Shown in pieces: positions 1-63,550 of a DNA stretch of 64,000 nucleotides; the first letter of the stretch is position 1; each line of letters begins with the position of its first letter. The stretch comes from an uncultured bacterium (GTDB lineage: Bacteria; Fidelibacterota; Marinisomatia; SCGC-AAA003-L08; GCA-002704045). A model generated the notes under the pieces. It searched no databases. It saw only the letters and a list, made by a program, of their open reading frames with translations, and was not told the origin of the DNA. The DNA lies in the NCBI GenBank assembly GCA_964345035.1, contig CAYFPO010000003.1:73329-137328 (forward strand), written 5' to 3'. The translations under genes and the position numbers were made by a program.

Positions 1-578
1 ATCACTGCTTTGACGAGCGAGCAGAAATTATTAAAAAGTATACAGATAAACCTGTTATATTATTTCCCGGATCTTCCGACCAGATAAGCAAATATACTGA
101 CGCAATATTGTATATATCACTATTAAGTGGAAGAAATCCACAATACTTAATTGGTGAACATATACAATCTGCTCCTAAAATACATAGTTTAAATTTAGAA
201 GTTATCCCCACAGGATATCTTTTATTGGATGGTGGTATTCCGACATCTGTGGCAATAATGAGTAAAACAATTCCATTACCAATGGATAAACACGATATCA
301 TTGCAGCGCATGCACTAGCAGGGCAATATCTAGGTATGAAATTGATATACCTTGAAGCCGGCAGTGGTGCAAAAAAACCGGTATCACCGGAATTGATAAA
401 ATATGTTACAAATCTGTTGGGAATTCCTGTCATAGTGGGTGGTGGAATAAATTCACCGGAATCAACCGAAAAAATAGTAAAGGCAGGAGCGGGATATATC
501 GTTATCGGCTCTGCCATTGAAAATGGACAAAAAAATGATAATTTAAAAATTATAAATCGGATAATACATGAGCACTAA
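1..578 (+). CDS. geranylgeranylglyceryl / heptaprenylglyceryl phosphate synthase family protein (GGGPS/PcrB); 5' end lies outside the window
   Basis: Frame 3 is open from base 3 to TAA 576-578 (HCFDERAEIIKKYTDKPVILFPGSSDQ... lies upstream of the listed Met at 108). It has the family's TIM-barrel phosphate-binding motifs (YLEAGSGA ... PVIVGGGINSPE). The 171-aa ORF on the opposite strand is a shadow ORF. Confidence 0.8.
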   Translation, partial: HCFDERAEIIKKYTDKPVILFPGSSDQISKYTDAILYISLLSGRNPQYLIGEHIQSAPKIHSLNLEVIPTGYLLLDGGIPTSVAIMSKTIPLPMDKHDIIAAHALAGQYLGMKLIYLEAGSGAKKPVSPELIKYVTNLLGIPVIVGGGINSPESTEKIVKAGAGYIVIGSAIENGQKNDNLKIINRIIHEH

Positions 579-1533
579 AAATAATTCAAATAAAAACAAT
601 GTGAATGAAAATTTACTGGATCAATATGCAAAAAAATATCTTGTATTTTTACAATTTGAAAAACGACTTTCAAAAAATACTATTGAAGCATATTGGAATG
701 ATTTAAAAAGATATATTAATTATTTAAATGATTATTTTAAAATACGTAAACCAAATAAAATTAGAATTAAACATATACGTGAATTCGCTAATTTATTAAA
801 TACAACACCCATTTTAAGATCAGGCAATGCAGGCGTGCAAGCAACTACATTACATCGTGCATTTTCATCTATTCGTGGTTTTCATAAGTATCTAATAAGT
901 GAAGGAATTACAGATTCAGACCCCACAATTTTCCTTGAATCACCGAACAGTGATAGAAAGCTGCCAATTATTCTCTCTGTGGAAGAAATTGACCAGATAA
1001 TTCAAGCGGTAAATCCTGAGAGCAAGTCATGTTTAAGGGATAAAGCTTTAATTTCATTAATGTATGCAACAGGTTTAAGAGTTAGTGAGGTTGTCAATCT
1101 AAAATTGACAAATATTCTTTGGGATGAACAGATAGTCAGAATAATTGGAAAAGGTGGAAAAGAACGAGTTGTACCAATTGGAATGAGATCATTTCAGCTA
1201 CTGAAGAAATATGTAGATTTGGACAGACCACGACTAGCAAGAAAGGGAGATAGTCAAAGTTATTTATTTTTGAATAATAGAGGCAGACCGACAACACGGA
1301 TGACAATTTGGAATATATTAAATAAACATTTAAAAATGGCTGGAATAGATAAAAATATCAGCCCACACACCCTAAGGCATAGTTTTGCAACGCATCTTGT
1401 TGAAGGAGGCGCAGATTTACGCGCTGTACAGGAAATGCTAGGGCATGCAGATATTTCAACAACCCAAATTTATACACATCTTGATTCAACATATTTGAAG
1501 GAAGTTCACAAGCAGTATCACCCAAGAGCCTAA
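568..1533 (+). CDS. xerD: site-specific tyrosine recombinase XerD/XerC
   Basis: 321 aa. Catalytic C-terminus HTLRHSFATHLVEGGADLRAVQEMLGHADISTTQIYTHL (R..HxxR..Y signature), plus an N-terminal core-binding domain. Overlaps the upstream gene by 11 nt. Confidence 0.85.
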   Translation: MSTKNNSNKNNVNENLLDQYAKKYLVFLQFEKRLSKNTIEAYWNDLKRYINYLNDYFKIRKPNKIRIKHIREFANLLNTTPILRSGNAGVQATTLHRAFSSIRGFHKYLISEGITDSDPTIFLESPNSDRKLPIILSVEEIDQIIQAVNPESKSCLRDKALISLMYATGLRVSEVVNLKLTNILWDEQIVRIIGKGGKERVVPIGMRSFQLLKKYVDLDRPRLARKGDSQSYLFLNNRGRPTTRMTIWNILNKHLKMAGIDKNISPHTLRHSFATHLVEGGADLRAVQEMLGHADISTTQIYTHLDSTYLKEVHKQYHPRA

Positions 1534-11391: not shown

Positions 11392-12128
11392 TAAATAATT
11401 TATTCAGATATATCATTGCAGCCGGAGTATTAATAATAATTGGTGCCTTCTTGGTTGAAATTTTTGTGTTACCCCAATATGTTAGCGTAAATAAAGAACT
11501 TTATCTTCCGGATGTCCGGGGAATGTTTAAACATCATGCAGTAAAACTTTTAAAATCCCACGAATTATCTGTTAAAATTGAAGATATACCCTTTACAACG
11601 GAGGATGAAATTGGAAGAGTATTAAAAATGTCGCCGTTACCACCGATTAAAATAAAATCAGGTAGAACTGTTGAATTATCTATTCCATCAGGAAGAAATA
11701 ATATTTTTGTACCAGAATTGGTAAATATGACACTTCGAAATGCAAAAATTGAAATAGAAAAACATAATATGGAACTAGATACAGTTATGTATGAACATTT
11801 TTCAGAAATAAAAAAAGGATTGATAACAGTTCAAAATCCCAGGGCAGGGCATCTTGTTGAAACAGGTGCTTTAATATCTCTAATGGTTAGTAAAGGACCG
11901 CCACCCGATATTTTCAGAGTACCTGACTTAATAAATTTAAGTTTACAAAGAGCAAAACAAAAATTAAATGAGGCAGGGCTGAGGTTAGGAATTGTAGAGT
12001 ATGAATATCAACCTGGTTTATTAAAGGGAACGGTAATTGAGCAAAGTCTTACCCCTGGAATGAGTGTCAGCATTCCTGCTGCTGTAGATATAATTGTCAG
12101 TTCAGATAAAAAAGAGGACAGAAAATGA
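11388..12128 (+). CDS. membrane-anchored PASTA domain protein
   Basis: 246 aa. N-terminal TM helix followed by three ~65-aa PASTA-like repeats (LPDVRG.., VPELVNMTLRNAK.., VPDLINLSLQRAK..). Confidence 0.7.
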   Translation: MINNLFRYIIAAGVLIIIGAFLVEIFVLPQYVSVNKELYLPDVRGMFKHHAVKLLKSHELSVKIEDIPFTTEDEIGRVLKMSPLPPIKIKSGRTVELSIPSGRNNIFVPELVNMTLRNAKIEIEKHNMELDTVMYEHFSEIKKGLITVQNPRAGHLVETGALISLMVSKGPPPDIFRVPDLINLSLQRAKQKLNEAGLRLGIVEYEYQPGLLKGTVIEQSLTPGMSVSIPAAVDIIVSSDKKEDRK

Positions 12129-18881: not shown

Positions 18882-19484
18882 TTATACTTTATCCCCCGAA
18901 TAGAAGATAACCTCTTCTGAAATAAATGAATTTAACAGGGTGCCTAAATTTGAATAGAAATCATCTTTTGATTTTTTTAATAACTTTTTTGCGAATTCAC
19001 CTGTCCATTTACTCAAATGGTTTGTTAGAAATTTTTTTGATATTGTTTCTTTTGATGTATCATTTTTCACAACGGAATTAAAAATCAGGTAATACATAAA
19101 TTCTAATTCTGTGGATATATGGTCTGGTGGTTCCTTATTGTCATCGTTGGGATTAAGACCGGCATCAACATAATATTCAATAGCATCAATAGTTGATTCT
19201 CCCATAACCAAACCTTGGGGGTCAAGATAAACAGAACTAAATGGCGCTGCTTCAACCTGATAAGGACCAACAAATAACCTGGAGTATTCTATTTGTAAAT
19301 CCTTCAGAGTATTCTCGTGCTCCAATCTTGTTACGAGTGTATTAACAAGTGTTTCAAATTTGGGGGAAAGATTGCTAAATGTGTCAAATATCGTAGATGA
19401 CAGTTCTGTTAACCTTTTGTCCGGATACTTAAACAATTCTGAAAGAATTTTATATGCATTTGCTCGATATACACTTGGTTGCAT
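18882..19484 (-). CDS. TorD/DmsD-family redox-enzyme maturation chaperone (ArrD-like)
   Basis: 200 aa, helical. YSRLFVGP...APFSSVY motif typical of TorD-like chaperones. Last gene of the molybdoenzyme operon. Confidence 0.7.
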   Translation of the reverse strand: MQPSVYRANAYKILSELFKYPDKRLTELSSTIFDTFSNLSPKFETLVNTLVTRLEHENTLKDLQIEYSRLFVGPYQVEAAPFSSVYLDPQGLVMGESTIDAIEYYVDAGLNPNDDNKEPPDHISTELEFMYYLIFNSVVKNDTSKETISKKFLTNHLSKWTGEFAKKLLKKSKDDFYSNLGTLLNSFISEEVIFYSGDKV

Positions 19485-19501
19485 TGTGATATGGTTCTTA
19501 T

Positions 19502-20191
19502 CTAGAATTCGTCAATGTAAAACACTTTTGGTTTAGTTCCTTTACTTGGTAACAGGGTCCGTACTGAACGCATATTTATGAGTGTTTTTTCTTTGCTGTT
19601 TAGGTTATCCAAATCAACTAAGAGCCGCGCTTCTGCGGGACATACTTCAACACACCAGGGCTTTTCACCATCTGCAAGGCGGTGGTCGCACAGGGTGCAT
19701 TTTTCTACAATACCCTTCCGCCTAACACCTTCATAGGTTTTAGCACGGTCCGGATTGTAGTGGGGAAATGGTACACCATCAAATTTGTCCGCCACTTCTT
19801 TTGCACTCGCGGTAATACCCGGTATTGTTTCCTCTTTGTCATTACGCCATTGGTGTTGTTTTTCTTCATTAAAGCTTATTACATCGTAAGGGCAGGCCAG
19901 TTCACAACTTCTACAGCCGATACAAATATCTGGATCATGCAATGTCAATCCGTCTTCATTCTTATGCATAGCTTCGGTGGGACAGGCTTTAATACATGCT
20001 GCATTCTCGCAATGATTGCATAATTTCGGAATATATTTCCACTTTACATTTGGGAAGACACCCGTGGTTTCTTGGGTATGAAAAGACCAGCTAATATTGT
20101 GATCTAGATTGTTTTCGGTTTTACATGCAATATCACACCCTGCACATCCGACGCAGTTATTTAGATCAATTATCATTCCGTAGTTAGCCAT
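19502..20191 (-). CDS. 4x[4Fe-4S] ferredoxin-type electron-transfer subunit of Mo-bisPGD oxidoreductase (PsrB/ArrB-like)
   Basis: 229 aa. Four Cys groups: CVGCAGCDIAC, CNHCENAACIKACP, CIGCRSCELACP, CTLCDHR...CVEVCP. Confidence 0.9.
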   Translation of the reverse strand: MANYGMIIDLNNCVGCAGCDIACKTENNLDHNISWSFHTQETTGVFPNVKWKYIPKLCNHCENAACIKACPTEAMHKNEDGLTLHDPDICIGCRSCELACPYDVISFNEEKQHQWRNDKEETIPGITASAKEVADKFDGVPFPHYNPDRAKTYEGVRRKGIVEKCTLCDHRLADGEKPWCVEVCPAEARLLVDLDNLNSKEKTLINMRSVRTLLPSKGTKPKVFYIDEF

Positions 20192-20203
20192 AAGATTTCT
20201 CCT

Positions 20204-22750
20204 TTAACTAATTTTTGTAAGATTAACACGAGTTACACCGCCGTGCCTTGCGGTACTCCCACTCAGACGGTCATAATCGGGCGGCAACAAAGCATTATTA
20301 TTTCCGCCCCTTGCTTCACCTTTTGCAAAATCTTTTGAAGCGATACGGCCATAAGCCCAATGTCCTTGCCCATAACATTTTGTTATGGTACCGGGGCGAA
20401 CGCCTTCCCACAGCTTCACATGACAGTTTAACTCACCGCTTGGTGATTGTAATTTTATCAAATCGCCATTTTTTAATGAAAACTGTTTTGCATCTATCGG
20501 GTTGATTTTTGCAACATCATCCCATTTTTCATCACCGGGATCTGCATCTTTATGTGCAAGATACCAGGTAATATTTGCAGATCGGCCCTCACGATTTAAT
20601 CGCGAACGATGTTCAAAAAATATAAATGGATATTTCTTTGGGTCACCGCGCCTGAATGCAGGTTCATAATGAGGGATAAAAGCGATTTCATCCTTTGCTA
20701 AATAATCACATTCGTTAAGAACATGATTAATACTCACACCATGTTTTTCTGCGTGTGCAGCTAAGGATTTTTTGAGTGTTTCACTATAAAATTCGAACTT
20801 TTTAGTTTTGGTCCCAAAGTTGCCCCATTTTTTACGATAGGGATATTTTTTTGAATTCCAAACACCTTTTTCGTAAAGGTCATTCCAGCCTTTGGGGGCA
20901 TCTCCATATTTGCCATAGTTTTTATGGTTTTTATCCCAAAGCGGGTTTGTATAGTACTTTAAGGCAAATAACGAAAATTCAAGACTGTTTTTGGGTTCCA
21001 ATCCGGTTTCAGGATCTTTGAATTCGGTCTTGAAACAATTCAGGAGATTTGGGAATCCTTTCTTATTCAGACTTTCAGCAATTAACCATGGCACTTCAGT
21101 TTCATCCATTTTAGTATCCCAGATGGGTTCAAGAATAGGTTTATTAAGGGCTGCGTAAGCATATAAGTTTTGTTTACTCTTAATAAAGCCATACTTTTCA
21201 AACATTTGGTGACTGGCAGGTAGTACAATATCTGCGAAGTGGCTCATCTCGGATGCATGGGTTGTTATGTGAGCAAAAAAGGGCAGTTTTGTTAATGCTT
21301 TTTCCCACCGGTCGGCTCCACTGCAGGAAAAGGCAAAATTATTCCAATACCCAATGACCACTTTTATATCATAGGGTTTTTCTGCGAGAATTGCGTCAGC
21401 TGCATTATTGGTTACCACACCTTTCCCTGATTTACCTTTTTTTAGGGCAGGGAACTTGAGTGAACCCCGTTGGTCCATTTTTTTATGTTTGTTCCCGGCC
21501 TTTGCAATATCATCGTAATAAGATTTATAAGAAGGCACTTTATTTACGGGAATTTTAGCTGAACGTACGGTACCGCCTTCATTGTCCACAGAACCGACCA
21601 GCCCATTCAAAGCATGCGCAGCCATAGCACTGTACCCACCGCGTACGTGCATTGAAGCACCCGGAGATAACCATGAAATTGCTCTCGGGGCAGCGTCTGC
21701 GAATCCTTTTGCAACGCGGATGATTTGTTCTGCCGGGATGCCGGCACGTTTTTCTGCCCACGACGGTGTTCTGTCTTTGAGTTCTAAATTCCACCATTTT
21801 ATTAAACCGTTTGTATGAATTTCCTTAAATAACGTTTCATCAATTTCCTGGCCTGCTACAAAATGATTTTTACCATCAATAAAATCACCGACAAATTCTT
21901 TAGACCACATTCCATTTTTTAAAATGGTATGTGCAATAGCAACAGCCAGAGCACCATCTTCTCCGGGTATAACAGGCAGCCATTCATTTGCTTTAGTAGC
22001 AGTAGCGGACAATCTTGGGTCAACTACAGCTATTTGTGCCTGTTTGCGAACTTGTCCCCATATACTTGTTGCGTGAGGGACTTGGCGGTTAGAGGCAAGC
22101 GGATCAGCACCCCAACTTAAAACATAGCGAGTCCTTTCCAAATCATAATCTCTGTATCCCCAATATCCTTCCGTAAAAAAAGCGCCAAATTTTTCACTTT
22201 CAGCACAAATAGCGCTATGGGATATACCATTGGGTGATCCAAAAACCTTTGGCATCACTTCATAAATAATGTCTCGCATGTATGTATAACGACCTCTGAA
22301 TACCACAAATTTGTGTGTTTCATTGGACCGTCTTAAGTCCATCATTCTATCGGTAATTGCATCTATGGCTTCTTCCCATGTAATCGGAATAAACTTTGGA
22401 TTTTCGTGGCGTCCCTTTTTCGGATTTGTTCGCTTCATGGGCACTTTGATTCTATCGGGATCATACAGCTGTTGGATGGCCATGTGTGACCGGACACAGG
22501 CTTTCCCATGATTTGCTTTTGAGTAATCATTGCCATTCACTTTTACTGCTCGGCCACCTACAACATTAACCTTAACCGGACACCATGTTGTACATCCCTG
22601 GCAAACACTCGTCATCCAGCTTGATATATTTGCGGTGCTATCTTTTGTCTCCTTAAAAGCACCCAAAAGGGGGAAGCCATTCGCTAATCCCAATATACCT
22701 AAACCAGTAATTGTAGAGAGTGATAGAAATTCTTTTCTTGTGATTCCCAT
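20204..22750 (-). CDS. periplasmic molybdopterin (Mo-bisPGD) oxidoreductase catalytic subunit, Psr/Phs/Arr clade, with ArrA-type active-site pattern
   Basis: 848 aa. Tat-like leader MGITRKEFLSL...; C50-x2-C-x3-C-x27-C85 cluster motif; FRGRY (152-155); H178-S-A-I-C182-A-E-S-E-K187; Y199. Confidence 0.85.
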   Translation of the reverse strand: MGITRKEFLSLSTITGLGILGLANGFPLLGAFKETKDSTANISSWMTSVCQGCTTWCPVKVNVVGGRAVKVNGNDYSKANHGKACVRSHMAIQQLYDPDRIKVPMKRTNPKKGRHENPKFIPITWEEAIDAITDRMMDLRRSNETHKFVVFRGRYTYMRDIIYEVMPKVFGSPNGISHSAICAESEKFGAFFTEGYWGYRDYDLERTRYVLSWGADPLASNRQVPHATSIWGQVRKQAQIAVVDPRLSATATKANEWLPVIPGEDGALAVAIAHTILKNGMWSKEFVGDFIDGKNHFVAGQEIDETLFKEIHTNGLIKWWNLELKDRTPSWAEKRAGIPAEQIIRVAKGFADAAPRAISWLSPGASMHVRGGYSAMAAHALNGLVGSVDNEGGTVRSAKIPVNKVPSYKSYYDDIAKAGNKHKKMDQRGSLKFPALKKGKSGKGVVTNNAADAILAEKPYDIKVVIGYWNNFAFSCSGADRWEKALTKLPFFAHITTHASEMSHFADIVLPASHQMFEKYGFIKSKQNLYAYAALNKPILEPIWDTKMDETEVPWLIAESLNKKGFPNLLNCFKTEFKDPETGLEPKNSLEFSLFALKYYTNPLWDKNHKNYGKYGDAPKGWNDLYEKGVWNSKKYPYRKKWGNFGTKTKKFEFYSETLKKSLAAHAEKHGVSINHVLNECDYLAKDEIAFIPHYEPAFRRGDPKKYPFIFFEHRSRLNREGRSANITWYLAHKDADPGDEKWDDVAKINPIDAKQFSLKNGDLIKLQSPSGELNCHVKLWEGVRPGTITKCYGQGHWAYGRIASKDFAKGEARGGNNNALLPPDYDRLSGSTARHGGVTRVNLTKIS

Positions 22751-22767
22751 AATGATACTCCTTTTAG

Positions 22768-23682
22768 TTAAAATTGAAACCCAGCAGATATGTGTATTTG
22801 CCCGCCGATAATCATTAAATGTTTCATTGTAAATCCGCCAAAGAGGATGAGTACACAGATTAAGATTGTCATGAAATTAGGCAGCTCGCGTTCCCGTCTC
22901 ATTATTGACCTAAAACACAGGAGCATTGGTATAATTGTGCCCCCAAACAAAACAATCAACGTCCAGATAACACCATAATTTTCCATAAAAATACCAAAGC
23001 TTAATCCCTGTTCAAGGTCTAATCTTCCAGAGTAATATTGCCATAAAATAATCGATATTAATTGCACGATTAAAAGAATGATGAACATTACTCTAAAGCG
23101 ATCTAATCCTAAGGGAAGATGAATTTTGGCTTCTTCACCATGATCTTTATGTCCACCTTTTTTTAGCTGTTGAAACAGGAGGACAAAAGCAATTCCTGAT
23201 GTTAAAGAAGATGCAATAAACATGCCCGGGGTAAGTTCTGACCATAACACTCTCCCCAATGATGACATATATAATCCGTGGTACAAACCGACCGAAAGTG
23301 CCAGAAAAGACCCTACAATTTTTACAAAATGCATCTGAGGTTTGTGGTGAAAATTCTTATAAACTAAATAAGCATAATATGTAGAGAATATGACAAAGAA
23401 TGTTTGTAAAAATACACCAATTGACATAACGGATTGAAGATTGATATTCCAGAAGGTTTTAATAAACCTAGAGGGAACGCCCAATTTCCAGATAAGAATT
23501 AATAATCCGGATATGACAGTGACCGGTGCAATATAAGCACCGAGTTTAATTGAAAGGGTGTGTTCTTCCTTGTCGTAAATACTTAATAAAACAGACAGCA
23601 AAAATGCACCAACACCAATCCCCCCTAAAAATAAATCAATGGTTACACGAACATCCCAGGCACCTAAATTCAAATAATCCAT
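22768..23682 (-). CDS. NrfD/PsrC-type integral membrane quinol-interacting anchor subunit
   Basis: 304 aa with about 8 TM helices and no haem motifs. Sits 17 nt upstream of the catalytic subunit gene. Confidence 0.8.
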   Translation of the reverse strand: MDYLNLGAWDVRVTIDLFLGGIGVGAFLLSVLLSIYDKEEHTLSIKLGAYIAPVTVISGLLILIWKLGVPSRFIKTFWNINLQSVMSIGVFLQTFFVIFSTYYAYLVYKNFHHKPQMHFVKIVGSFLALSVGLYHGLYMSSLGRVLWSELTPGMFIASSLTSGIAFVLLFQQLKKGGHKDHGEEAKIHLPLGLDRFRVMFIILLIVQLISIILWQYYSGRLDLEQGLSFGIFMENYGVIWTLIVLFGGTIIPMLLCFRSIMRRERELPNFMTILICVLILFGGFTMKHLMIIGGQIHISAGFQF

Positions 23683-46428: not shown

Positions 46429-48528
46429 TTAATGTAGCACTAAAAACTTTTCAGTTTTTATCATTTCCCCTGCCTTGTGAGTCATCAAATACATACCAGA
46501 ACTTACTATATTTCCGCTAAAATCCCTTCCATTCCAGGATAATTGGATGTATTTATCAATTGGAGGGTATTCATTATATAAATTTGCTACTTTCCTGCCT
46601 AAAATGTCGTATATATCTACAGAATACGGTACATTTTCATCTGTTATTACATAGGTATCAACAAAACTATATTGATTGGTATAAAAGGGATTTGGGTGAA
46701 CAATGATCTCATTCAGTGTGTCCTGAATTGCAATAAAACTGGAATCAATAAATGAAATTCTAACAGCCCAATTCCCAATTAATTGATCACCTGATGTAAA
46801 TGTGACATTTTCCAACTTAGAAAATGTATTTCCATTCAAAGAATAATATGAATGTCCATTGTGTATTAAAGATTCGCTGTAACCAATTGCATTATCATAC
46901 ATTTCAATAACCACATAAACAATTTCATTATCAACTAAAATCTCAGAGTCTGTCAAATTGATCTTATTCCAACCAGTGCCGATAGGTGAGCATATATATT
47001 CAAAATATTGTGGAGTGTAAGTAAATCCACCCTTCATTATTTTAATGGTAACCGGTGAATCATTTGCAACATTAATCTCTACTTCAGTCAATAATGCTCC
47101 GGATTCAAATAGAAATGTATTTGCGCCATACCACCCATCTGTATTGCCAATATCAATATATGCAAATATTTCATCATTGTCATAATTAATCTGATTGACT
47201 GAATTTATAGAATCCATCGTTATTGTTGTCTCACTTGCTTGATTTTCAGCATCATGGGTAATAAATGAATACATATATTCATTTCCATAATTATTCTGAG
47301 GAAATATCCAAATTCCCTCCTCAGAGTTTTCCAGAATTTCTTTGATTGTTAGATCTATAAGGCTGCTGGTCTCGCGGGTATTTAATTCTGTGAGTAATTC
47401 TTTCTGTACATTTTCGGGTATAAATATATGCCTGGAAGAATATGCGGGTAGTGTGGGAGAATTTATTTCCACTTCGTCATCTAAATTTAATGTAATATCT
47501 TCCTGGGGCGAAATACCGCTGATACAATCTGTGATTGGATAATTATCAAGTATTATATCCACTATCCATTGATCAAAGAATTGGTCAAATGGAATTTCAG
47601 TAATATATGTAGCATACCAATATTTTACAGATTCCAGCCGATTATATTCTGCATCCAGAAAAATCTGTTGAATAAAGGGTAGTCCCAGTTCGTCATTTTC
47701 GTAAAGATACTGCATAAATAATGCAGATTTTGAATAATATGGAAGAGTATTCGCCCCCCATTCATCAAGACCGATCTGTGTATCTGCAAGAAAATGGCCA
47801 TAATTTCTGTGACCTAATCCCAAGATTGACGGTGCAAGATCTGCCAATCCTTCATCCAGCCAAGGATTCCCAACCGCTTCATTTGGATCAGAATTATAAT
47901 GGAGTAAATGCTCATACTCATGAGCCAATGTATACATTGCTTCTTCAGGGTTATTGGAGGTTATATCAACAGGATCACAGTCAATATATATGATATCCAT
48001 CTCATTACTCGTAGGTGAATTGGTTTGGTCATTTTGATCAAAATAACCTGCCACATAATTTCCGGAGCCGGAAAAGTTATCACGGACATCCAATATCAAA
48101 ATATTGACTATTTCTGTGCCGTCTTTATTTGGTGGTGGACCAAATAAAGATTCCTCAGCAGATTTGATTCCAAATTTATGTTCAATATGATTAGCAAAAG
48201 GGGTTTCGGCGGTAAAAATATTCACAAGGTTGGTCAACCCTGCCGGTGAAATATACTCTGAGTTATTTTTTGACGACTCTATAAAAAACCTGGAATTCTC
48301 ATTTTCTGCAGCGAGGTCAAATTCTACGCATTCAAAATAATAATCACCGGTATTAGGCTGGAGAACATTCTTACGGATCTTGAATTGATTACTGTCGCAT
48401 TCCAGGTATTGGCGTGAAAGATATTCTCCTTGAATCAGGTCAGAATTTCCACACAGTCCGTATTGAGTATAACAAATTGAAATTAATGATATACTGATTC
48501 CAATGAATTTAATCCGAATGTTCATCAA
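46429..48528 (-). CDS. secreted gluzincin-type zinc metalloprotease with T9SS C-terminal sorting domain
   Basis: 699 aa with a signal peptide. HEYEH-x18-E (AHEYEHLLH...WLDEGLA) is the HEXXH-X18-E signature. The C-terminus HPNPF...SGMYLM...KFLVLH is a T9SS CTD-like beta-sandwich. Confidence 0.7.
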   Translation of the reverse strand: MMNIRIKFIGISISLISICYTQYGLCGNSDLIQGEYLSRQYLECDSNQFKIRKNVLQPNTGDYYFECVEFDLAAENENSRFFIESSKNNSEYISPAGLTNLVNIFTAETPFANHIEHKFGIKSAEESLFGPPPNKDGTEIVNILILDVRDNFSGSGNYVAGYFDQNDQTNSPTSNEMDIIYIDCDPVDITSNNPEEAMYTLAHEYEHLLHYNSDPNEAVGNPWLDEGLADLAPSILGLGHRNYGHFLADTQIGLDEWGANTLPYYSKSALFMQYLYENDELGLPFIQQIFLDAEYNRLESVKYWYATYITEIPFDQFFDQWIVDIILDNYPITDCISGISPQEDITLNLDDEVEINSPTLPAYSSRHIFIPENVQKELLTELNTRETSSLIDLTIKEILENSEEGIWIFPQNNYGNEYMYSFITHDAENQASETTITMDSINSVNQINYDNDEIFAYIDIGNTDGWYGANTFLFESGALLTEVEINVANDSPVTIKIMKGGFTYTPQYFEYICSPIGTGWNKINLTDSEILVDNEIVYVVIEMYDNAIGYSESLIHNGHSYYSLNGNTFSKLENVTFTSGDQLIGNWAVRISFIDSSFIAIQDTLNEIIVHPNPFYTNQYSFVDTYVITDENVPYSVDIYDILGRKVANLYNEYPPIDKYIQLSWNGRDFSGNIVSSGMYLMTHKAGEMIKTEKFLVLH

Positions 48529-49505: not shown

Positions 49506-50534
49506 TTAAGCTATATTGCCTATTTGATAATAATTTTCCTGACAGGTATTCAGGTAATTTTTTAGATCTGGAAATCCATCGGGTGAAACCGCCAAAATCA
49601 ATCCAATACCAAGATTCATACTCTGACGGATATCTTCTTCCGGTACATTTCCAATCTGCTGAATCAGATTAAATACTGGGAGTCTGTCCCAACTTTCCCA
49701 ATCGATATTCAATTTCTGATCTGCACTAATAATACGTTTGGTATTACCTTCGATTCCCCCTCCTGTAATATGGGCTAATCCGTGGAGCCAATCTTTTTTT
49801 ATGATAGGTTTGATTATATTGAGATATGATTTATGTACTTTCAAAAGTTCTTCACCAACAGAGCAATTTAGTTCAGATACAAATTCATCCGAATCAAAAT
49901 ATTCCAGTAAAACTTTTCTGGCGAGGGAATATCCATTAGTATGAAGTCCAGTGGAAGGAAGTCCTATTAAAATATCCCCTGTATTCACGGTTCTGTTTGG
50001 GAGCATATATTTTTTTTCGGCAACTCCCACAATTGTTCCGGATATATCATATTCACCATCTTTGTAAAATCCGGGCATTTCAGCGGTCTCACCACCTATT
50101 AATGCACAATTGTTTTCTCGACAAGCAGTGCTAAGTCCGGTAACAACAGATTCAAATACAGTGCTGTCCAGTTTTCCAATGGCGAAATAGTCCAGGAAAA
50201 AGAGTGGTTCGGCGCCAACAACCAGTATATCATTTACACAATGATTTACCAGACATTGGCCAATTGTATCATGATTTTTTGTGAGAAATGCCAATTTTAG
50301 TTTTGTCCCAACACCATCTGAGCTGGAAATTAATACCGGGTTTTTGAATTTATTTTGAGGAAATTCAAAACAACCACCGAACCCGCCTATATCTGTGATT
50401 ACCTGGCTGTTAAACGTACTTTGTACGTGTTTTTTTATTCGCTGGACTGCCTTTTCACCGGCAGCTACATCAACACCTGCTTCCTTATATGTCGTCAATT
50501 TCTTCTGCCAGTGGTTCAGCGTAAATACTGTCAA
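49506..50534 (-). CDS. purM: phosphoribosylformylglycinamidine cyclo-ligase (AIR synthetase)
   Basis: 342 aa. YKEAGVDV, DGVGTK and GGETAEMPG motifs. An alternative TTG start at 50498 (MTTYKEAGVD) would shorten the overlap with the upstream gene. Confidence 0.93.
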   Translation of the reverse strand: MTVFTLNHWQKKLTTYKEAGVDVAAGEKAVQRIKKHVQSTFNSQVITDIGGFGGCFEFPQNKFKNPVLISSSDGVGTKLKLAFLTKNHDTIGQCLVNHCVNDILVVGAEPLFFLDYFAIGKLDSTVFESVVTGLSTACRENNCALIGGETAEMPGFYKDGEYDISGTIVGVAEKKYMLPNRTVNTGDILIGLPSTGLHTNGYSLARKVLLEYFDSDEFVSELNCSVGEELLKVHKSYLNIIKPIIKKDWLHGLAHITGGGIEGNTKRIISADQKLNIDWESWDRLPVFNLIQQIGNVPEEDIRQSMNLGIGLILAVSPDGFPDLKNYLNTCQENYYQIGNIA

Positions 50535-54431: not shown

Positions 54432-54665
54432 TTAGTGATATTTTCCACAATTAGGGCAATATTGGCTTGTATTTTCTGTAGGGTCTGACTGGAGGTAATC
54501 TACATAGCCATACACCAGCATAGCAAAGAACAATACACCTAATACAACCATTATTATATTGGATTTAAAATGCCAGAATGACCTCTGGACTTTTTCCCTT
54601 CCACAACAATGTTTGAACTTTTTGCCACTACCACAGGAACATGGCGAATTTCTGTGCTCTTTCAT
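54432..54665 (-). CDS. SEC-C motif, single-TM small protein
   Basis: 77 aa. N-terminal SPCSCGSGKKFKHCCG (SEC-C metal-binding motif), one TM helix, and C-terminal CPNCG. Confidence 0.6.
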   Translation of the reverse strand: MKEHRNSPCSCGSGKKFKHCCGREKVQRSFWHFKSNIIMVVLGVLFFAMLVYGYVDYLQSDPTENTSQYCPNCGKYH

Positions 54666-54666
54666 A

Positions 54667-55080
54667 TTATCGTGCCTGTATCAACAGATTCTTGATGAGT
54701 TGATAATTATTTCCACAATTTTCATTGGGATCAGGATTATTATAAGTGAGATTAATTTTTGCTACCAGTTCACTCTGTCTATTGAGAATGAAGAAGTCTC
54801 TGATTGTTACATCCCATAACCCCCAAACGTATGGCTCAAAACAATAATCATCATTATCATGCCAAGTATAGCCGGCGTCTTCACAATCATCTTCATTGTA
54901 TAGAAGTTCCAGTATTTGGAGCAATGTATCTTGTGTCCATGGAAGAACCCTATCTTCTACACAGGAACCTGATTCACAATCACACAACATACAGGTATCA
55001 CTTGAATAATCATATTGTTTTCCATTAACTCCCATAATTTTTATATCCGTATAGCCTTCAGAAACCAATTCAAGATACAT
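54667..55080 (-). CDS. C-terminal (thioredoxin-fold) part of a candidate selenoprotein; annotated ORF starts at an internal Met
   Basis: 137 aa. ...DIKIMGVNG...LPWTQD...RDFFILNRQSELVAKINL is the distal part of a TlpA/redoxin-like fold. The reading frame is continuous with ORF 55117..55977 through TGA 55117-55119 and 12 open codons. Confidence 0.6.
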   Translation of the reverse strand: MYLELVSEGYTDIKIMGVNGKQYDYSSDTCMLCDCESGSCVEDRVLPWTQDTLLQILELLYNEDDCEDAGYTWHDNDDYCFEPYVWGLWDVTIRDFFILNRQSELVAKINLTYNNPDPNENCGNNYQLIKNLLIQAR

Positions 55081-55083
55081 ATC

Positions 55084-55113
55084 ATTTAAAACACCGAACC
55101 GGTGCTGACAAAC
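55084..55113 (-). promoter_or_regulatory. SECIS-like hairpin immediately 3' of the in-frame UGA
   Basis: mRNA UGA-GGAGUUUGUC-AGCACCG-GUU-CGGUGUU-UUAAAUGAU. Core stem 55090-55106 has 7 bp including one G-U, with a 3-nt G/U loop beginning 17 nt after the UGA. A UUU/AAA lower stem is possible. Confidence 0.45.
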
Positions 55114-55116
55114 TCC

Positions 55117-55977
55117 TCATCCGGCTTTACCAAAATAATATCCTGAAACATAACCCTCAAAATATGACGGTCCAATATCTACTCCAAAATACGGTGAATT
55201 AGGATTAATGTCTTCAAGTGAATAATCAGGCATAGGTTCCGGACCGTTTAAGATGACATCAACGATTAAAACAATATCAAGGATATCTACTGACAGATCG
55301 TGATTCATATCTGCAGACATAATTTGGTCACCGTCAAATTCAATATCACCTAGAATATAACCAACAGTAAGAACAATATCTAAAATGTCTACAGTAATAT
55401 CAAAATTTACATCTCCGGACAAATATTCAGGATCATACACATATATTTGCTCTGCCCAGACCTTGGCTGCTCCAACCTGACCGGATTCAGGGACTGTCCA
55501 AGTATTTCCCCCATCACTACTTGTCGTAAATGTATAATATGTTGACTCAGGGTATTGCCATACAGCTTGGGTAGTTGTATCCGAAGCCTGAAGTACAAGC
55601 CAGTAGTTCTGATAACTAATCAGGTTAATACAATCTGAAACAGTACTGGTTAAATATTCAAAACCAAGTTCTTGTCCGGGAAGTAAATTAATGGTCCACT
55701 CTCCCATCACATTGCCAGGCACTCCATCTATATCATCCCTAATTTGAGCTGTTAAATGCCCACCATCAGATGAATATCCGCACCAGACAGAAAAAGCTTC
55801 AAGTACATAGTCATTAACCGGAGTAAATCTGTCTGCCACTGCATTCCCGATTTCTCCGTCAAAATAGATATCATGTCCATCAGAACCTACCGGCAGTCCG
55901 GTATAAAATATTACCGATCTATCCTGTGAAAGGAGGATGACAATAGAACATAAAGCCAAAATCAGTTTAATTTTCAT
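55117..55977 (-). CDS. N-terminal part of a candidate selenoprotein: signal peptide, beta-rich domain, dockerin-type module, start of a thioredoxin-like domain; ends at TGA
   Basis: 286 aa. Dockerin-type duplicated segment GDVNFDITVDILDIVLTV...DMNHDLSVDILDIVLIVDVIL (nt 55243-55416). The tail ...SLEDINPNSPYFGVDIGPSYFEGYVSGYYFGKAG stops where a CxxC motif is expected. Confidence 0.65.
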   Translation of the reverse strand: MKIKLILALCSIVILLSQDRSVIFYTGLPVGSDGHDIYFDGEIGNAVADRFTPVNDYVLEAFSVWCGYSSDGGHLTAQIRDDIDGVPGNVMGEWTINLLPGQELGFEYLTSTVSDCINLISYQNYWLVLQASDTTTQAVWQYPESTYYTFTTSSDGGNTWTVPESGQVGAAKVWAEQIYVYDPEYLSGDVNFDITVDILDIVLTVGYILGDIEFDGDQIMSADMNHDLSVDILDIVLIVDVILNGPEPMPDYSLEDINPNSPYFGVDIGPSYFEGYVSGYYFGKAG

Positions 55978-58888: not shown

Positions 58889-60397
58889 TTAATTTTCCAG
58901 AATAATATTTACAACCTGAATTATATCTAATACATTAATAATACCATCCTGGTTTAAATCTGCTGCCCAGAATTGTGCGGGTGAAAGTTCTGCTCCTAAA
59001 ATTGCATTTACCATTGATATTATATCCAGAATGTCAATTGTATCATCCAAATTCACATCCCCTAAAATACCATTAAATGGAATACTAAATTCATAAGTAT
59101 GAATTTCGTGAGCATAAACTTCAAATGTGACAGTTTCTATGATTTCATCCTCCACAATATAATCAAATGTCTGTTCCCCTTCCGGAAAACCAAAATAAAA
59201 ATGACCAGTAGAGTCCTGACTGAATATTTTACTGTTTAATTCAGAAACTAATACACCATTTAAAAAAGGATTGTCCGGAGATGAATTTATGTTAATATCC
59301 AGCCAACCTGCATACGCAGGGTCGAATTCAAATACAAACAATCCATGCTGCATATCAGTAGCATATACATAATTATTTCCAGTAAACGGAAATGCACCCC
59401 AGCATCCAAAATAACCGTTATTATTATCTTCAGGATAAGTATCATAAGCTGCTATTTCAATGGGATCATCCGGATTAAACATATCAACAATTTTAAGTCC
59501 GGTAGTATAATGAGAAATATAGACTAAATCACCTTTAATATGAACATTGTGGGCGAGGTTATTTTCTCCCAAATATTCTCCACGCAACTCGATATTATTT
59601 AAATTAGAAATATCCCATATTTTAACAGTCTTATTGGGAGTTTCTTCAGTGGTTACAATAAAATTATTATCTTCAGTGACCCAGGCATTATGGGCATATC
59701 CGGGTGCAGGCGGCGTTATTCCTGCGAGCAATTGTAAATTATCCAAATCTGATATATCATAGATTCTATAATGATATTCCCAACCTTCAGAAACATAGGC
59801 AATTCCATTTTGAGTAAATACATCATGACAATTTATTCCATAGGAATTTTGAAAACTCCCGACATGTTCCGGATCACCAGGATTCGTAAGATCAACTATA
59901 TGTATATTATCCGGCCAGGTGTGTTCTATAAATGCAAATCCTAAGGATTGATCAATCCACAGATTATGTGATCGAACTATGCCTGTATAAGTGTTGAGTT
60001 TTATCGGAGGATTATCTGGTAATGGGCTGAGATCCACGATCTGCATTCCTTCATCCTCACCTGACATTTCATTCACAATATATAGATGATCATTAAAAGT
60101 TTTATAATCCCGATGATAATAATAATCACCTCCAGAAGGACCGGGGATATCAGCAATCTCAATGGGATTTTCAGGATCTGTAGATACATCCAGTATGATT
60201 GTTCCGAATCGATAGCCAAAAATTGCATACTCAATACCCGTTTCATCGGTATATCCCCAAACATCTGAAATGCCATAATTATTGCCCGCATTTTGAACCA
60301 TTGTAATACTCACCAATTCCAAATTATAATTAACCGGATTAGAGAATAATATCTTAAAACAAAATAATAAAATTGTATTTCTTGTGGAATTTTTCAT
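58889..60397 (-). CDS. LVIVD-repeat (choice-of-anchor-B-like) beta-propeller protein with C-terminal dockerin-type module
   Basis: Repeats such as LYIVNE..GMQIVDLS, IHIVDLTNPGDPE, YRIYDISD, VKIWDISN, LKIVDMFNPDDP. C-terminal GDVNLDDTIDILDIISMVNAIL...ADLNQDGIINVLDIIQVVNIIL (nt 58892-59062). The ORF is open to 60475; the start at 60397 gives a signal peptide. Confidence 0.75.
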   Translation of the reverse strand: MKNSTRNTILLFCFKILFSNPVNYNLELVSITMVQNAGNNYGISDVWGYTDETGIEYAIFGYRFGTIILDVSTDPENPIEIADIPGPSGGDYYYHRDYKTFNDHLYIVNEMSGEDEGMQIVDLSPLPDNPPIKLNTYTGIVRSHNLWIDQSLGFAFIEHTWPDNIHIVDLTNPGDPEHVGSFQNSYGINCHDVFTQNGIAYVSEGWEYHYRIYDISDLDNLQLLAGITPPAPGYAHNAWVTEDNNFIVTTEETPNKTVKIWDISNLNNIELRGEYLGENNLAHNVHIKGDLVYISHYTTGLKIVDMFNPDDPIEIAAYDTYPEDNNNGYFGCWGAFPFTGNNYVYATDMQHGLFVFEFDPAYAGWLDININSSPDNPFLNGVLVSELNSKIFSQDSTGHFYFGFPEGEQTFDYIVEDEIIETVTFEVYAHEIHTYEFSIPFNGILGDVNLDDTIDILDIISMVNAILGAELSPAQFWAADLNQDGIINVLDIIQVVNIILEN

Positions 60398-60473
60398 TTT
60401 CGATTGATATTCCTTATTGGGAATATAAATAAATTCAATAATGTTAAAAAAGGTATCATAGGAAGAATTTCTC

Positions 60474-60516
60474 AAAAAAGCAGAAGAGCCCCGAATAAAT
60501 TCCGGGGCTCTTCTGC
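60474..60516 (-). terminator. rho-independent terminator of the 1001-aa surface protein gene
   Basis: Minus-strand RNA GCAGAAGAGCCCCG-GAAUUUAUU-CGGGGCUCUUCUGC-UUUUUU: a 14-bp GC-rich stem plus U6, 28 nt after the stop codon. Confidence 0.9.
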
Positions 60517-60544: not shown

Positions 60545-63500
60545 CTACTTCATTAATAATAACTTCTGTGTATGGCTATAAGTTCCAGCGTTCATTTTAA
60601 CATAATAAATACCGCTAGAAAATTCAGCGCCATTCCATGTTAACGTATGATTTCCACTGGATACTGTACCATTCACCAGAGTCTCAATCTGACGTCCCAT
60701 AATATCATACACTGCAATCATAACACTGCCAGTTTCTGGCATAGAATAACTGATTGTAGTTGCAGGATTAAATGGATTTGGATATGCTGGAGATAAACGA
60801 TAATTTACAGGTGCATTTGAAATAGATGAAGAAACTTCTTCTCCATTCCAATTTGCGACAAGAACTTCATTTAATTCCAGATTTCCGGTATAATTGAACA
60901 ATTCACCGGTTATATCCTTACCTTCAAGTGAGATTATCAATACAGTGCCATTATGTTCATACAGATCATATTCGGAATTTCCTGTAATTGTGTAATCTCC
61001 GGATACAGATAATTGAATACCGCCAATACTTGATTCAGCATCAATTGCCAACGAATGATCATTCAAAATGAAAGATGCATTACCTGTAGTGGAAGATTCA
61101 ACCCGATTGGTTCCAAGGATCCAGTTTACGATAATCACGATATCAAGAACATTTATCTCGCCGTCACCATTCACATCAGAAGCAGCTGCTTCATCCGGTG
61201 TAGGATCATCTGTATCAAGGATGAAGTTCACCATAATCACGATATCAAGTACATTTATTTCACCGTCACCATTCACATCACCAGGAGTGACTGAACTTTC
61301 AATCTCTGCACAAGCAGTGTTGGATGCTGCAGATTCACCTTCATCATATACAGCAGTCACAAAATAGCAATGTTCTGTTCCTGCCATTGCAGATCCATCC
61401 ACAAAGCCGGTATCAGTTGTGTAATCAAGTATTTCACCGTCACGATACACATTGTATCCGTTTAATTCTCTGGATACTTCACCGTAATCCAGTCTTGCAA
61501 ATCCATATCCTTCTTCAGTTAATGTAGCAGGTTTTATGAATATACCAAGTTCTGGATTAGTGATACGATTCCCGTATTCATCATGGTATAGATCATATAA
61601 TGCCTGTTCTTCTTCAGAACGACCACAGTCATATCCGCAGAACTCACATGCATCCGGGCAGCAGTCACCATATCCTTCACATAATGAATCACAATAGCAA
61701 CCGCCAGGTGACTGATCTTCGCAATATCCTTCACAGGTAGCATCGCCACCACCGCCGCCACCGCAGTCGGTGCTTGAGGAGGTAGCAGTAACAACTTCTG
61801 ACATTATATCACCGGCGCCAATCTGGAATACATACGTTTCACTTGGACCGAATCCAAAGAAAATAAAAGATTCATTGAATCCATATCCTGTTAAGTCAAA
61901 CGGGTTTTCACTTGGATCATCTACACCAAATCCAAGAAAATCTAATTCACATCCGCCTTCCCAGGATATTTCGAAATAATTACTGTTTTCATAGCAATCT
62001 TCCGGACTGACAACCATAAAGTTATCAATGGATTCACAATCTCCTGGAGGAGGTGGTGGTTCACCACTACATACTCCATAAGGATCGTCAATAGCTTCAC
62101 AGTCACCACAGTCGTTACCATACTCCGGACATTCACCACCGGGTAACCAAAAGGTTAATCCATAATCACCGTTATCACACCAACCATCACCAAGCCATGT
62201 TGTTTGACCTTCTACACAACCGTCGTAGGTGTCATTTGCACAATCTTCATTATTAAAACACACACCGGCACAATCTACATATTCAGCAGAACCATCGGGG
62301 CATGGTGGGAAATCTCCACCTCCGCCACCACCGGGTGATGACCAGGATAATGTAATGTCACTATCGCCTGCTGTTGCAGTAAGATTAGATGGTGGATCTA
62401 AATCCGGATCCGGACAATCATCCAGTGTTTCAGCACATGAACCATCAGGACATGTAACCAATCCCTGGTCTTCACAGGATTCTACTTCACCAACTGTGAA
62501 ATCAAAAGTCCCTACAGCACCACTTGCGATTATATTACCGTTTGCATCGGTAATATCCCATGTAATTTCACTGTCCCAGCTTCCACCACCAACTGTGATA
62601 GAATAATTACCTGCTTCGAGACAGAGTATATCAGTTCCTTCGGAGCCATTATCCAATGTACCGGATGCTACTACACTTCCACCTGCATCAGAGATAGTAT
62701 ATGAAGCACCATTCCATCCGTCACCATAGGAATCATACATATTCATAAATAATGTTGTACAATCCGGACAATCATCCATTGTTTCTGCACAGGAACCGTC
62801 AGGACAGGTAACTAATCCCTGATCCTCGCATGATTCTGATCCGCCTTCACAACCTGGATCATCTTCCGGACAGTCACCGCCGTCACAATCGTAACATGTC
62901 AAATCTGCGCCATACTGCTGATCATTACAGTCGGGGTAGCCATCACCAATCCAACTTTCAGGCCAGCATTCAAATGTACCATCGCAATCCAGTACGTAAC
63001 CTTCACCGCAGTCACCTTCTTCCGGACAGTCTTCCAGTGTTTCTGCACAGGAACCGTCCCAGCAGGTAATAAGACCTAATTCTTCACAAGTCGCACAATC
63101 ATTTGTAGCTTCACTTGCACCTACATTTCCGTCATCAAATGTAATGATAAAAACTTCTGTGACACCCGGTTCAAATCCAAAGAAATAGAAACCACTTGTA
63201 AAACCATAAGATGCGATGTCCAAGAAGCCGCCGCTATATTCCAATCCTGTAGCAAGACATCCGCCTTCCCAAAATAGATAAAAGTAACCGCTTCCATCGT
63301 CCCAGCAGAGATCATTTTCACCATCTCCGTCAAGATCATCACTACCATACGCAATAAAAGTTTCATCACACACATCTCTTAAACCTTCATCCTGAATTTC
63401 ATTCTGAAGTTGTTCTAGTTTAAATGAATGATCAGTATCACTTTTCTTTGTTATCCTATTTTTATTCAGCGAATCAGTTGCAAAGGTGAAGCCAATTACC

Positions 63501-63550
63501 AAAACACCCGTCAATAAAACGCTTAAATAATAGTTATATCCTTTTTTCAT
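60545..63550 (-). CDS. 1001-aa mosaic Cys-rich secreted protein with Fn3-like segment, dockerin-type module and T9SS C-terminal sorting domain
   Basis: Signal/anchor MKKGYNYYLSVLLTGVLVIGF. Three CE(D/E)(Q/L)GL(V/I)TC(P/W)DGSCAET..DCP modules, two W(I/L)GDG..DC...DGGDC/DCGDC modules, one C.G.C-x7-C.CD..C...GDCC.D....C module, poly-Gly and poly-Pro tracts. Dockerin at aa 757-813. C-terminal PNPFNP...SGIYYVKM...LLLMK. Confidence 0.8.
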   Translation of the reverse strand: MKKGYNYYLSVLLTGVLVIGFTFATDSLNKNRITKKSDTDHSFKLEQLQNEIQDEGLRDVCDETFIAYGSDDLDGDGENDLCWDDGSGYFYLFWEGGCLATGLEYSGGFLDIASYGFTSGFYFFGFEPGVTEVFIITFDDGNVGASEATNDCATCEELGLITCWDGSCAETLEDCPEEGDCGEGYVLDCDGTFECWPESWIGDGYPDCNDQQYGADLTCYDCDGGDCPEDDPGCEGGSESCEDQGLVTCPDGSCAETMDDCPDCTTLFMNMYDSYGDGWNGASYTISDAGGSVVASGTLDNGSEGTDILCLEAGNYSITVGGGSWDSEITWDITDANGNIIASGAVGTFDFTVGEVESCEDQGLVTCPDGSCAETLDDCPDPDLDPPSNLTATAGDSDITLSWSSPGGGGGGDFPPCPDGSAEYVDCAGVCFNNEDCANDTYDGCVEGQTTWLGDGWCDNGDYGLTFWLPGGECPEYGNDCGDCEAIDDPYGVCSGEPPPPPGDCESIDNFMVVSPEDCYENSNYFEISWEGGCELDFLGFGVDDPSENPFDLTGYGFNESFIFFGFGPSETYVFQIGAGDIMSEVVTATSSSTDCGGGGGGDATCEGYCEDQSPGGCYCDSLCEGYGDCCPDACEFCGYDCGRSEEEQALYDLYHDEYGNRITNPELGIFIKPATLTEEGYGFARLDYGEVSRELNGYNVYRDGEILDYTTDTGFVDGSAMAGTEHCYFVTAVYDEGESAASNTACAEIESSVTPGDVNGDGEINVLDIVIMVNFILDTDDPTPDEAAASDVNGDGEINVLDIVIIVNWILGTNRVESSTTGNASFILNDHSLAIDAESSIGGIQLSVSGDYTITGNSEYDLYEHNGTVLIISLEGKDITGELFNYTGNLELNEVLVANWNGEEVSSSISNAPVNYRLSPAYPNPFNPATTISYSMPETGSVMIAVYDIMGRQIETLVNGTVSSGNHTLTWNGAEFSSGIYYVKMNAGTYSHTQKLLLMK
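61131..61280 (-). repeat. 48-bp direct repeat (3 mismatches, 102-nt period) encoding the two Ca-loop/helix halves of the dockerin-type module
   Basis: 61131-61178 and 61233-61280 align as ataatcacgatatcaag[a/t]acatttat[c/t]tc[g/a]ccgtcaccattcacatca. Both copies encode DVNGDGEINVLDIVI(M/I)V. Confidence 0.9.

Follow-up and report, generated by a model that had tools for sequence, protein, structure and literature searches.

The closest described relatives of the gene analyzed here belong to Prx-like 2, a selenoprotein family described on the basis of the marine metagenome of Global Ocean Sampling (GOS) (Zhang and Gladyshev, 2008; PMC2398784). The GOS data consisted of reads of ~800 nt with no organism attached, and the fused modules were termed "Unknown_2" and "distant Secretin_N". 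The study reported the adjacency of peroxiredoxin (Prx) and Prx-like 2 genes, and its Dataset S1 listed the fused architecture with selenocysteine (Sec, U) annotated (JCVI_READ_1189786 and 1091140728852), together with a paralog type and UxxU variants (PMC2398784). The present analysis concerns a gene at 54667..55977 on the minus strand of a 64-kb stretch of contig CAYFPO010000003.1 (hereafter the window), in which an in-frame TGA separates two open reading frames (ORFs). Both ORFs are highly likely to belong to a single gene, encoding a secreted Prx-like 2/NF053656 selenoprotein, from Candidatus Neomarinimicrobiota (Marinimicrobia, SAR406).

The window protein matched NF053656, "TUGYCR motif thioredoxin fold (seleno)protein", its score of 123.9 bits (E = 4.7e-36) lying above the cutoff of 100 and the match being split into two stretches because of an insertion. 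It also showed 44% identity over 313 residues (E = 6e-83) to the GOS Prx-like 2 read JCVI_READ_1189786, and its N-terminal domain aligned with "Unknown_2" of Fig. S1C in the GOS study. The domain itself, the Sec-first U-x-x-C motif, its flanks YYFGK[AQ]G-U-xxC-xxRFG, the "Unknown_2" fusion, and the marine origin were all shared with GOS Prx-like 2, and nothing essential was different in the window protein. By these comparisons, the gene falls into a selenoprotein family that had been described and curated before, fusion included, and it confirms known biology. The remark in the initial annotation that no description of such an architecture was known to it was thus not borne out, since the fused form was listed in 2008 (PMC2398784) and the family is curated as NCBIfam NF053656. 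Indeed, publication of the family, the motif, a weak link to selenoprotein P, and the fusion dates back to 2008, and NCBIfam curates them. Our literature search returned nothing relevant on dockerin-bearing selenoproteins or on selenocysteine in Marinimicrobia.

This analysis adds little: it identifies the fused module as a dockerin, places the β-sandwich near choice-of-anchor R, and assigns the family to Marinimicrobia. In addition, it quantifies the synonymous-site conservation of the selenocysteine insertion sequence (SECIS), makes the SelP_N link stronger, and flags both the split annotation and a Trp introduced by genetic code 4. A family known from anonymous reads only is now tied to a named, globally abundant phylum; selenoprotein biology as understood is unchanged, and the gain in annotation is modest.

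The in-frame TGA and the hairpin that follows it

On the minus strand, the ATG at 55977 opens an ORF of 286 codons, which stops at the TGA at 55119..55117. The frame past this TGA remains open for 149 further codons, running through GVCQHRFGVLND and past the ATG at 55080 up to the TAA at 54669..54667, and the junction in the protein reads ...YVSGYYFGKAG-(TGA)-GVCQHRFGVLNDMYLELVSEGY... Reading the TGA as sense yields a single ORF of 436 sense codons, and the frame and coordinates of the 436-residue protein proposed in the initial annotation were confirmed. The gene and its recoding elements are the following.

54667..55977, minus strand: entire coding sequence as recoded, with 436 sense codons (codon 287 for Sec) and a final TAA; full-length orthologs in 31 genomes
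55117..55119, minus strand: Sec codon TGA, codon 287; TGA in 38/38 loci, aligned with the Cys of CxxC homologs
55108..55119, minus strand: redox motif U-G-V-C, codons 287-290; second Cys invariant, motif between β1 and α1 in the model of homolog P0170
55090..55106, minus strand: SECIS-type stem-loop AGCACCG-GUU-CGGUGUU with a 7-bp stem and GUU loop, nt 14-30 (U of UGA = 1)
55094..55102, minus strand: SECIS core C-CGG-UUC-GG (CCGGUUCGG), nt 18-26, identical in 33 distinct sequences

This gene was the one credible candidate for TGA read-through in the 64-kb window. When called with table 11, the 47 non-overlapping ORFs of at least 150 residues covered 88% of the window and 13 of them terminated in TGA, which supported the claim of a local recoding with no alternative code. 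The ATGA stop/start overlaps quoted in its favor (3981-3984, 11388-11391, and 12125-12128) were likewise confirmed to be present.

The conservation of the TGA was assessed over 38 loci, comprising 31 Marinimicrobia species genomes from a scan using one genome per species, six metagenome contigs, and the window. All taxon-naming records among the 31 were Candidatus Neomarinimicrobiota/Marinimicrobia (SAR406), and the remaining ones were labelled just "uncultured bacterium" or "bacterium TMED". TGA occupied the orthologous codon in every one of the 38 loci, which span 35-74% protein identity, and it was followed by 112-211 conserved in-frame open codons (37/37 loci, before L037 was added). L037, the closest relative, matched the window in synteny and also carried the TGA. 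Between the window and L037, amino-acid identity was 74% on the upstream side of the TGA and 88% on the downstream side, and the ratios of nonsynonymous to synonymous substitution rates (dN/dS) were 0.068 and 0.034, respectively, with dS saturated; that is, the part downstream of the TGA was better conserved than the upstream part. These values indicated purifying selection on both sides of the TGA, strong on the downstream side. Given the lone candidate in the window and the conservation in 38/38 loci, the observation is far beyond chance.

A protein search with the fused sequence retrieved 63 strong homologs, most of which were ~283 residues long and terminated in ...YYFGKAG, and a few "full-length" public homologs showed Trp at the TGA position. 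The DNA of P0003, P0005, and P0006 reads TGA where the public protein has Trp, and this Trp is an artifact of code-4 gene calling on short metagenomic contigs. Judging from the motif position, the Trp of P0004, P0007, P0009, P0170, P0229, P0257, P0281, P0283, P0285, P0295, and P0310 would correspond to TGA as well. Such an artifact can pose as a Trp homolog when Sec candidates are tested. Public assemblies keep the gene as two unnamed ORFs (P0001 and P0183) or put Trp at the Sec codon, which leaves selenoprotein counts too low for abundant ocean bacteria, SAR406 among them.

An exhaustive profile search, partly swamped by dockerin-only matches because the N-terminal columns had entered the profile, revealed CxxC homologs that align on the UxxC motif, unbroken over the junction. 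These Cys forms were P0198 (YYFSSVH-C-GTC-QVRFG), P0220, P0305, P0313, P0321, P0327, P0328, and P0336. Cys homologs aligned continuously through ...GKAG-C-GVC..., for which the initial annotation had proposed to look, were thus found, as exemplified by P0198, and no ortholog ended at ...GKAG except by the TGA itself. On this comparative evidence, the UGA at codon 287 was shown to be a recoded sense codon and not a stop, and the recoded residue is almost certainly selenocysteine.

The bacterial SECIS (bSECIS) model of bSECISearch (Zhang and Gladyshev, 2005, summarized in PMC13188914) limits the loop to 3-9 nt with G in the first two loop positions, the stem to at least 4 bp, the spacing to 16-37 nt, and the minimum free energy (MFE) to -7.5 kcal/mol or lower. 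The window hairpin agrees with this model in all four respects and has a 3-nt loop opening with G-U, a 7-bp stem, a loop start 17 nt after the UGA, and an MFE of -9.2 kcal/mol. As in the bacterial SECIS consensus and E. coli fdhF, it is an intragenic stem-loop right after the UGA with a small G-U apical loop, whereas it differs from them in having three to four invariant pairs, no evident bulged U, and no Rfam match.

Comparison among the orthologs was more informative, as the core (nt 18-26) was invariant over 33 distinct sequences. The Arg codon within the core was CGG in all of them, compared with 3.4% of the Arg codons elsewhere in the same genes; its Phe codon was always TTC (15% elsewhere), and the codon before CGG always ended in C (9-19% elsewhere). 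The invariance of the core is thus not accounted for by protein conservation, the hairpin being kept at synonymous sites by rare codons. Pairs 18-26, 19-25, and 20-24 were constant throughout the 33 sequences, and pair 17-27 was A-U in 24, C-G in five, and broken in four. L037 carries U18, with the U18-G26 pair preserved, and in the paralog pair 18-26 is G-C at an equal 18-nt offset from the paralog's own TGA. A SECIS-type hairpin does therefore lie where the initial annotation had placed it, in accord with the model and with its core conserved. Rfam matches to eukaryotic snoRNA and miRNA models were rejected as chance.

Domain organization and structural models

The protein was divided into four parts, which are encoded as follows.

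55927..55977, minus strand: putative signal peptide, residues ~1-17, MKIKLILALCSIVILLS, then a conserved QDRS; predicted from sequence
55447..55917, minus strand: β-sandwich (jelly-roll), residues ~21-177, with 12 strands and a pLDDT of ~90 in the AlphaFold2 (AF2) model; equivalent to GOS "Unknown_2"
55246..55416, minus strand: dockerin type I, residues ~188-244; PF00404 with 26.9 bits (cutoff 22.9) and E = 5.8e-6
54670..55230, minus strand: thioredoxin-fold redox domain, residues ~250-436; NF053656 match, with a variable Cys-rich, acidic insertion

The N-terminal part was modelled by AF2 on the window's own product P0001, and the model (pLDDT, the predicted local distance difference test score, of 84.7) consisted of an N-terminal helix, a 12-strand β-sandwich, and a three-helix dockerin. 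The putative signal peptide has a charged n-region and a hydrophobic core, is conserved in position among the homologs, and corresponds to a helix at residues 2-16 in the model. The β-sandwich scored 27.1 bits against NF041539 (choice-of-anchor R), below the cutoff of 30. Choice-of-anchor R is a domain class typical of surface proteins. Foldseek returned mixed jelly-roll matches for the β-sandwich, such as phage baseplate, viral capsids, and CBM6, with query-normalized template modelling (TM) scores of 0.41 or lower. Because these matches were weak and heterogeneous, no function was assigned from the fold.

The dockerin contains two D-x-N-x-D-x-x-x-D-x-x-D loops, DVNFDITVDILD and DMNHDLSVDILD, and its helices span residues 198-209, 216-222, and 232-244 in the AF2 model. 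The dockerin-type module recognized in the initial annotation was thus substantiated, both by the two loops and by a PF00404 score above the gathering cutoff. Two more dockerin proteins sit just upstream in the window, and a further protein carries a sorting tail of the type IX secretion system (T9SS).

58889..60475, minus strand: dockerin protein with LVIVD repeats and a C-terminal dockerin, just upstream
60545..63550, minus strand: 1001-residue protein with a dockerin and a T9SS Por_Secre_tail, just upstream
46429..48528, minus strand: 699-residue protein with a T9SS sorting tail

Because of these two proteins, dockerins seem to be general in the secretome and appear to be a common module in the organism's secreted proteins. 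For the selenoprotein itself, the dockerin identification suggests a surface-tethered selenoenzyme. The pairing of redox domain and dockerin recurred in at least three arrangements, Cys forms included. Some Cys-type members occur in larger or reordered proteins (P0327, P0336, P0198, P0313, P0321, and P0328), some up to 1609 residues long; dockerin-like repeats lie C-terminal to the redox domain in P0327 and P0336, and N-terminal in P0198. Composition suggests that the Cys-type members come from high-GC organisms such as Planctomycetes.

The redox domain was modelled by AF2 on homolog P0170, a lipoprotein-type stand-alone form. The model (core pLDDT 77-96) showed strands at residues 66-72, 101-107, 146-150, and 156-161, and helices at 78-95 and 170-185. 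This amounts to a β-α-β...β-β-α layout, in which the U-x-x-C motif is located at the N-terminus of α1, after β1. While sequence-only searches of the PDB gave no significant match, a Foldseek search with this model yielded 177 PDB matches at E ≤ 1e-3, with ResA first. The top structural matches were ResA, DsbE/DsbF, StoA, and TlpA-like proteins (E ~4e-6, target-normalized TM up to 0.67). Model and Foldseek matches together bore out the TlpA/ResA-type layout with the TGA at the first UxxC position, as had been read from the sequence. The family resembles ResA, TlpA, DsbE/CcmG, and StoA in its exported location and in the redox motif at the α1 N-terminus, and these proteins are its best structural matches; however, it differs from them in identity (15-20%), in having Sec for the first Cys, and in having R-D for the cis-Pro lead-in. 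Unlike the ResA type, no cytochrome-maturation genes were located near the window gene.

The Cys-rich insertion, CMLCDCESGSC ... C...C (residues ~323-335 and 365-380), lies between β2 and the LPWTQD motif. Most orthologs possess it, whereas one sub-clade (L012, L023, L025, L028, and L030) lacks it altogether, and its role may be to provide structural disulfides or to build a metal site. Another near-invariant Cys is found near the C-terminus (NP[DS]P..x..C.xNY).

Probable Sec decoding in the lineage and rival explanations

In 29 related loci, the gene is immediately followed on its 3' side by an AhpC-type Prx gene. The codon of its peroxidatic residue (FTFV-?-PTE) read TGA in 12 of these loci and was a Cys codon (TGC or TGT) in 17.

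L001:1611, L003:4825, L010:11508, L013:9849, L016:10187, and L020:11630: example positions for the Prx neighbor in the 29 loci

Prx is a family with experimentally known Sec forms, and its Sec/Cys pair is textbook. The neighboring Prx thus provides independent, indirect evidence of Sec decoding in the clade. Like the selenoprotein, the Sec-containing peroxiredoxin (T-x-x-U) adjacent to it in the 29 loci is a Sec/Cys-variable thioredoxin-fold enzyme, whereas it belongs to the AhpC-TSA plus 1-cysPrx_C family, lacks a signal peptide, and does not occur in the window. Furthermore, SelD has been reported for SAR406 single-cell genomes (Peng et al., 2016; PMC5029168). The selenoprotein gene and the Sec/Cys Prx next to it together show that Marinimicrobia very probably decode Sec. 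An ORF with AIRS/AIRS_C domains at 49506..50534 (minus strand), 4 kb away, was considered as a SelD candidate and proved to be PurM (TIGR00878, E = 7.8e-112).

Several other explanations of the split ORF were weighed against the selenoprotein reading. The gene could be a pseudogene in which a Cys codon (TGY) mutated to TGA, a change of one base, leaving the downstream ORF of the two seen in public records as a decaying remnant. This was ruled out because the TGA and the downstream frame are conserved, with a downstream dN/dS of 0.034; it would also leave unexplained why the TGA persists in 38/38 loci at 35-74% protein identity, why the downstream part is the more conserved one, why the hairpin is conserved at synonymous sites, and why no downstream frameshifts or stops were seen in close relatives, so that its probability is negligible. 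If instead there were two genes, the TGA would end a dockerin protein and a restart would yield a separate thioredoxin-like protein. Many orthologs do have ATG as the second codon past the TGA (S-M-C), where gene callers start, and the window has an ATG 13 codons downstream. Nevertheless, we consider this arrangement very unlikely: the halves are always in one frame with zero spacing, Met is missing from the vicinity of the TGA in at least 12 loci (STC, TTC, GLC, SLC, or GVC), and GVCQHRFGVLND, stretching from the TGA to the window ATG, is the most conserved part of the protein. Such a split would moreover place strand β1 and the first redox residue on the other polypeptide, and the Cys-type homologs are single chains.

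An alternative genetic code, in which TGA means Trp or Gly (codes 4 or 25), would agree with the W at the TGA position in public gene calls; this W, however, is the code-4 calling artifact on short contigs described above. With 13 of the 47 long window ORFs ending in TGA at a table-11 coverage of 88%, with relatives lacking TGA carrying Cys, and neither Trp nor Gly, at the homologous residue, and with IF-2, NusA, LeuRS, and PNPase intact and free of any in-frame TGA seen, the probability of such a code is close to nil. Finally, the TGA might be read through without selenium by a near-cognate tRNA (Trp, Cys, or Arg), stimulated by the hairpin, in a genome without Sec machinery. The failure to find this machinery in the window and 496 kb of related loci and the "orphan" SelD scored for SAR406 genomes (PMC5029168) speak for it. 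The TGA, meanwhile, falls on the catalytic residue that opens a CxxC-type motif, a site at which Sec and Cys replace each other as a rule; in the same genomes, a Sec/Cys pair is also seen at the peroxidatic residue of the neighboring Prx; the hairpin conforms to the bSECIS model for SelB; and the family is curated as a selenoprotein family (NF053656; PMC2398784). Selenium-free read-through is accordingly regarded as improbable.

A number of observations weigh against the selenoprotein reading itself. The hairpin is short and its folding energy is ordinary (z = -1.2); the case for a SECIS thus rests on the comparative data, because thermodynamics alone is not significant. Rfam SECIS families gave no match to the window hairpin at either gathering or permissive thresholds. 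Covariation was confined to one or two pairs, with four sequences breaking pair 17-27, so that the check by SECIS model and covariation proposed initially held for the four constraints and the conserved core, whereas covariation extended only to pairs 17-27 and 18-26. Neither the 64-kb window nor 496 kb of related loci, which make up a small part of each genome, yielded tRNA-Sec, selA, selB, or selD; ARAGORN detected no tRNA-Sec in the window or 26 loci, and tblastn of E. coli SelD and SelA queries gave no match in the 496 kb. The SelD of SAR406 was scored as "orphan" (Peng et al., 2016; PMC5029168), and the window locus is without the Prx neighbor present in 29 other loci. At the protein level, the site of the cis-Pro before β3 is occupied by an invariant R-D (LRDFxILD) with no Pro in the family alignment, and no cohesin was matched among the ~47 window ORFs scanned by family models. 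Localization, dockerin partner, substrate, and reductant are all features that we infer.

On the selenoprotein reading, the product would consist of a cleavable signal peptide, a choice-of-anchor R-like β-sandwich, a two-loop Ca2+-type dockerin, and a ResA/TlpA-like U-x-x-C domain. SelB with Sec-tRNA(Sec) would recognize the hairpin on the translating mRNA and insert selenocysteine, the protein would be exported via its signal peptide by the Sec-dependent secretion route, and the dockerin and β-sandwich would hold it at the cell envelope. There, the selenolate would attack a disulfide or peroxide substrate and be joined in a selenenylsulfide to the resolving Cys, three residues further along the chain, and a reductant would recycle the enzyme. 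The protein would in this manner act outside the cytoplasm as a thiol/selenol oxidoreductase or as a peroxidase, in functional alliance with the Prx whose gene flanks it in most genomes. The frequent Prx adjacency suggests a role in oxidative stress, the link being thematic and not physical because the Prx has no signal peptide.

Relation to selenoprotein P, paralogs, and neighboring genes

The N-terminal domain of selenoprotein P (SelP, human SELENOP) is distantly related to bacterial thioredoxin-fold oxidoreductases, as published in 2008 (PMC2397514). When the family profile was aligned by hhalign with the N-terminal domain of human SELENOP, whose sequence was confirmed as SelP_N at E = 9.5e-116, a probability of 90.9% (E = 1.2e-6) was obtained over 119 columns, with Sec on Sec. 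The window protein scored 11-14 bits against PF04592 SelP_N (E 0.03-0.28), below the gathering cutoff of 23.2; 13 of 21 family members matched SelP_N, just P0096 (24.5 bits) exceeding that cutoff. Both proteins are secreted and share the Sec position in U-x-x-C, α1 (..L.DL...L..EGY), β2 (I.VN), and a common "DVW..(x)..DF.I.DR.G" segment. In contrast, SELENOP has D-D where the bacterial family has R-D at the cis-Pro site, and the window protein, from a bacterial host, has neither the Sec-rich C-terminal tail nor the His-rich region, carries a Cys-rich/acidic insertion and a dockerin instead, and has its SECIS inside the coding region and not in the 3' untranslated region. These alignments indicate that the redox domain is distantly related to the SelP N-terminal domain.

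A bolder proposal is that Prx-like 2/NF053656 is the specific bacterial sister of the SELENOP N-domain and that Marinimicrobia and other marine bacteria display it on the cell surface by means of dockerins, within an extracellular redox system based on selenium. We hold this to be possible, though on balance doubtful. If true, it would provide a concrete prokaryotic ancestor for SELENOP and a new role for non-cellulosomal dockerins.

Tandem paralogs with swapped modules were observed at L029:16646-17340, L019 around 15407, and L029:16072, and both types are contained in the GOS 2008 dataset. One of them combines a signal peptide with a U-G-L-C domain and a dockerin at the C-terminus. Its counterpart is of the UxxU type, with two TGAs 6 nt apart (TGA GCG GGC TGA) followed by a GGAC-AGUU-GUCC hairpin, which would need to serve both TGAs.

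Elsewhere in the window, a PsrABC-like cluster at 18882..23682 (minus strand) comprises the 848-residue catalytic subunit of a molybdopterin oxidoreductase, together with a 4Fe-4S subunit, a membrane subunit (NrfD), and a chaperone of the TorD/NarJ type; its catalytic ORF is unbroken and hence contains no Sec codon. The remaining features are listed below.

54432..54665, minus strand: 77-residue ORF containing a SEC-C metal-binding motif, with a hydrophobic segment predicted as well, directly 3' of the gene; conserved at this position in L037
54170..54421, minus strand: 83-residue Cys-rich ORF, directly downstream; no match in the family search
568..1533, plus strand: tyrosine recombinase (Phage_integrase, XerC/D-like), at the window start

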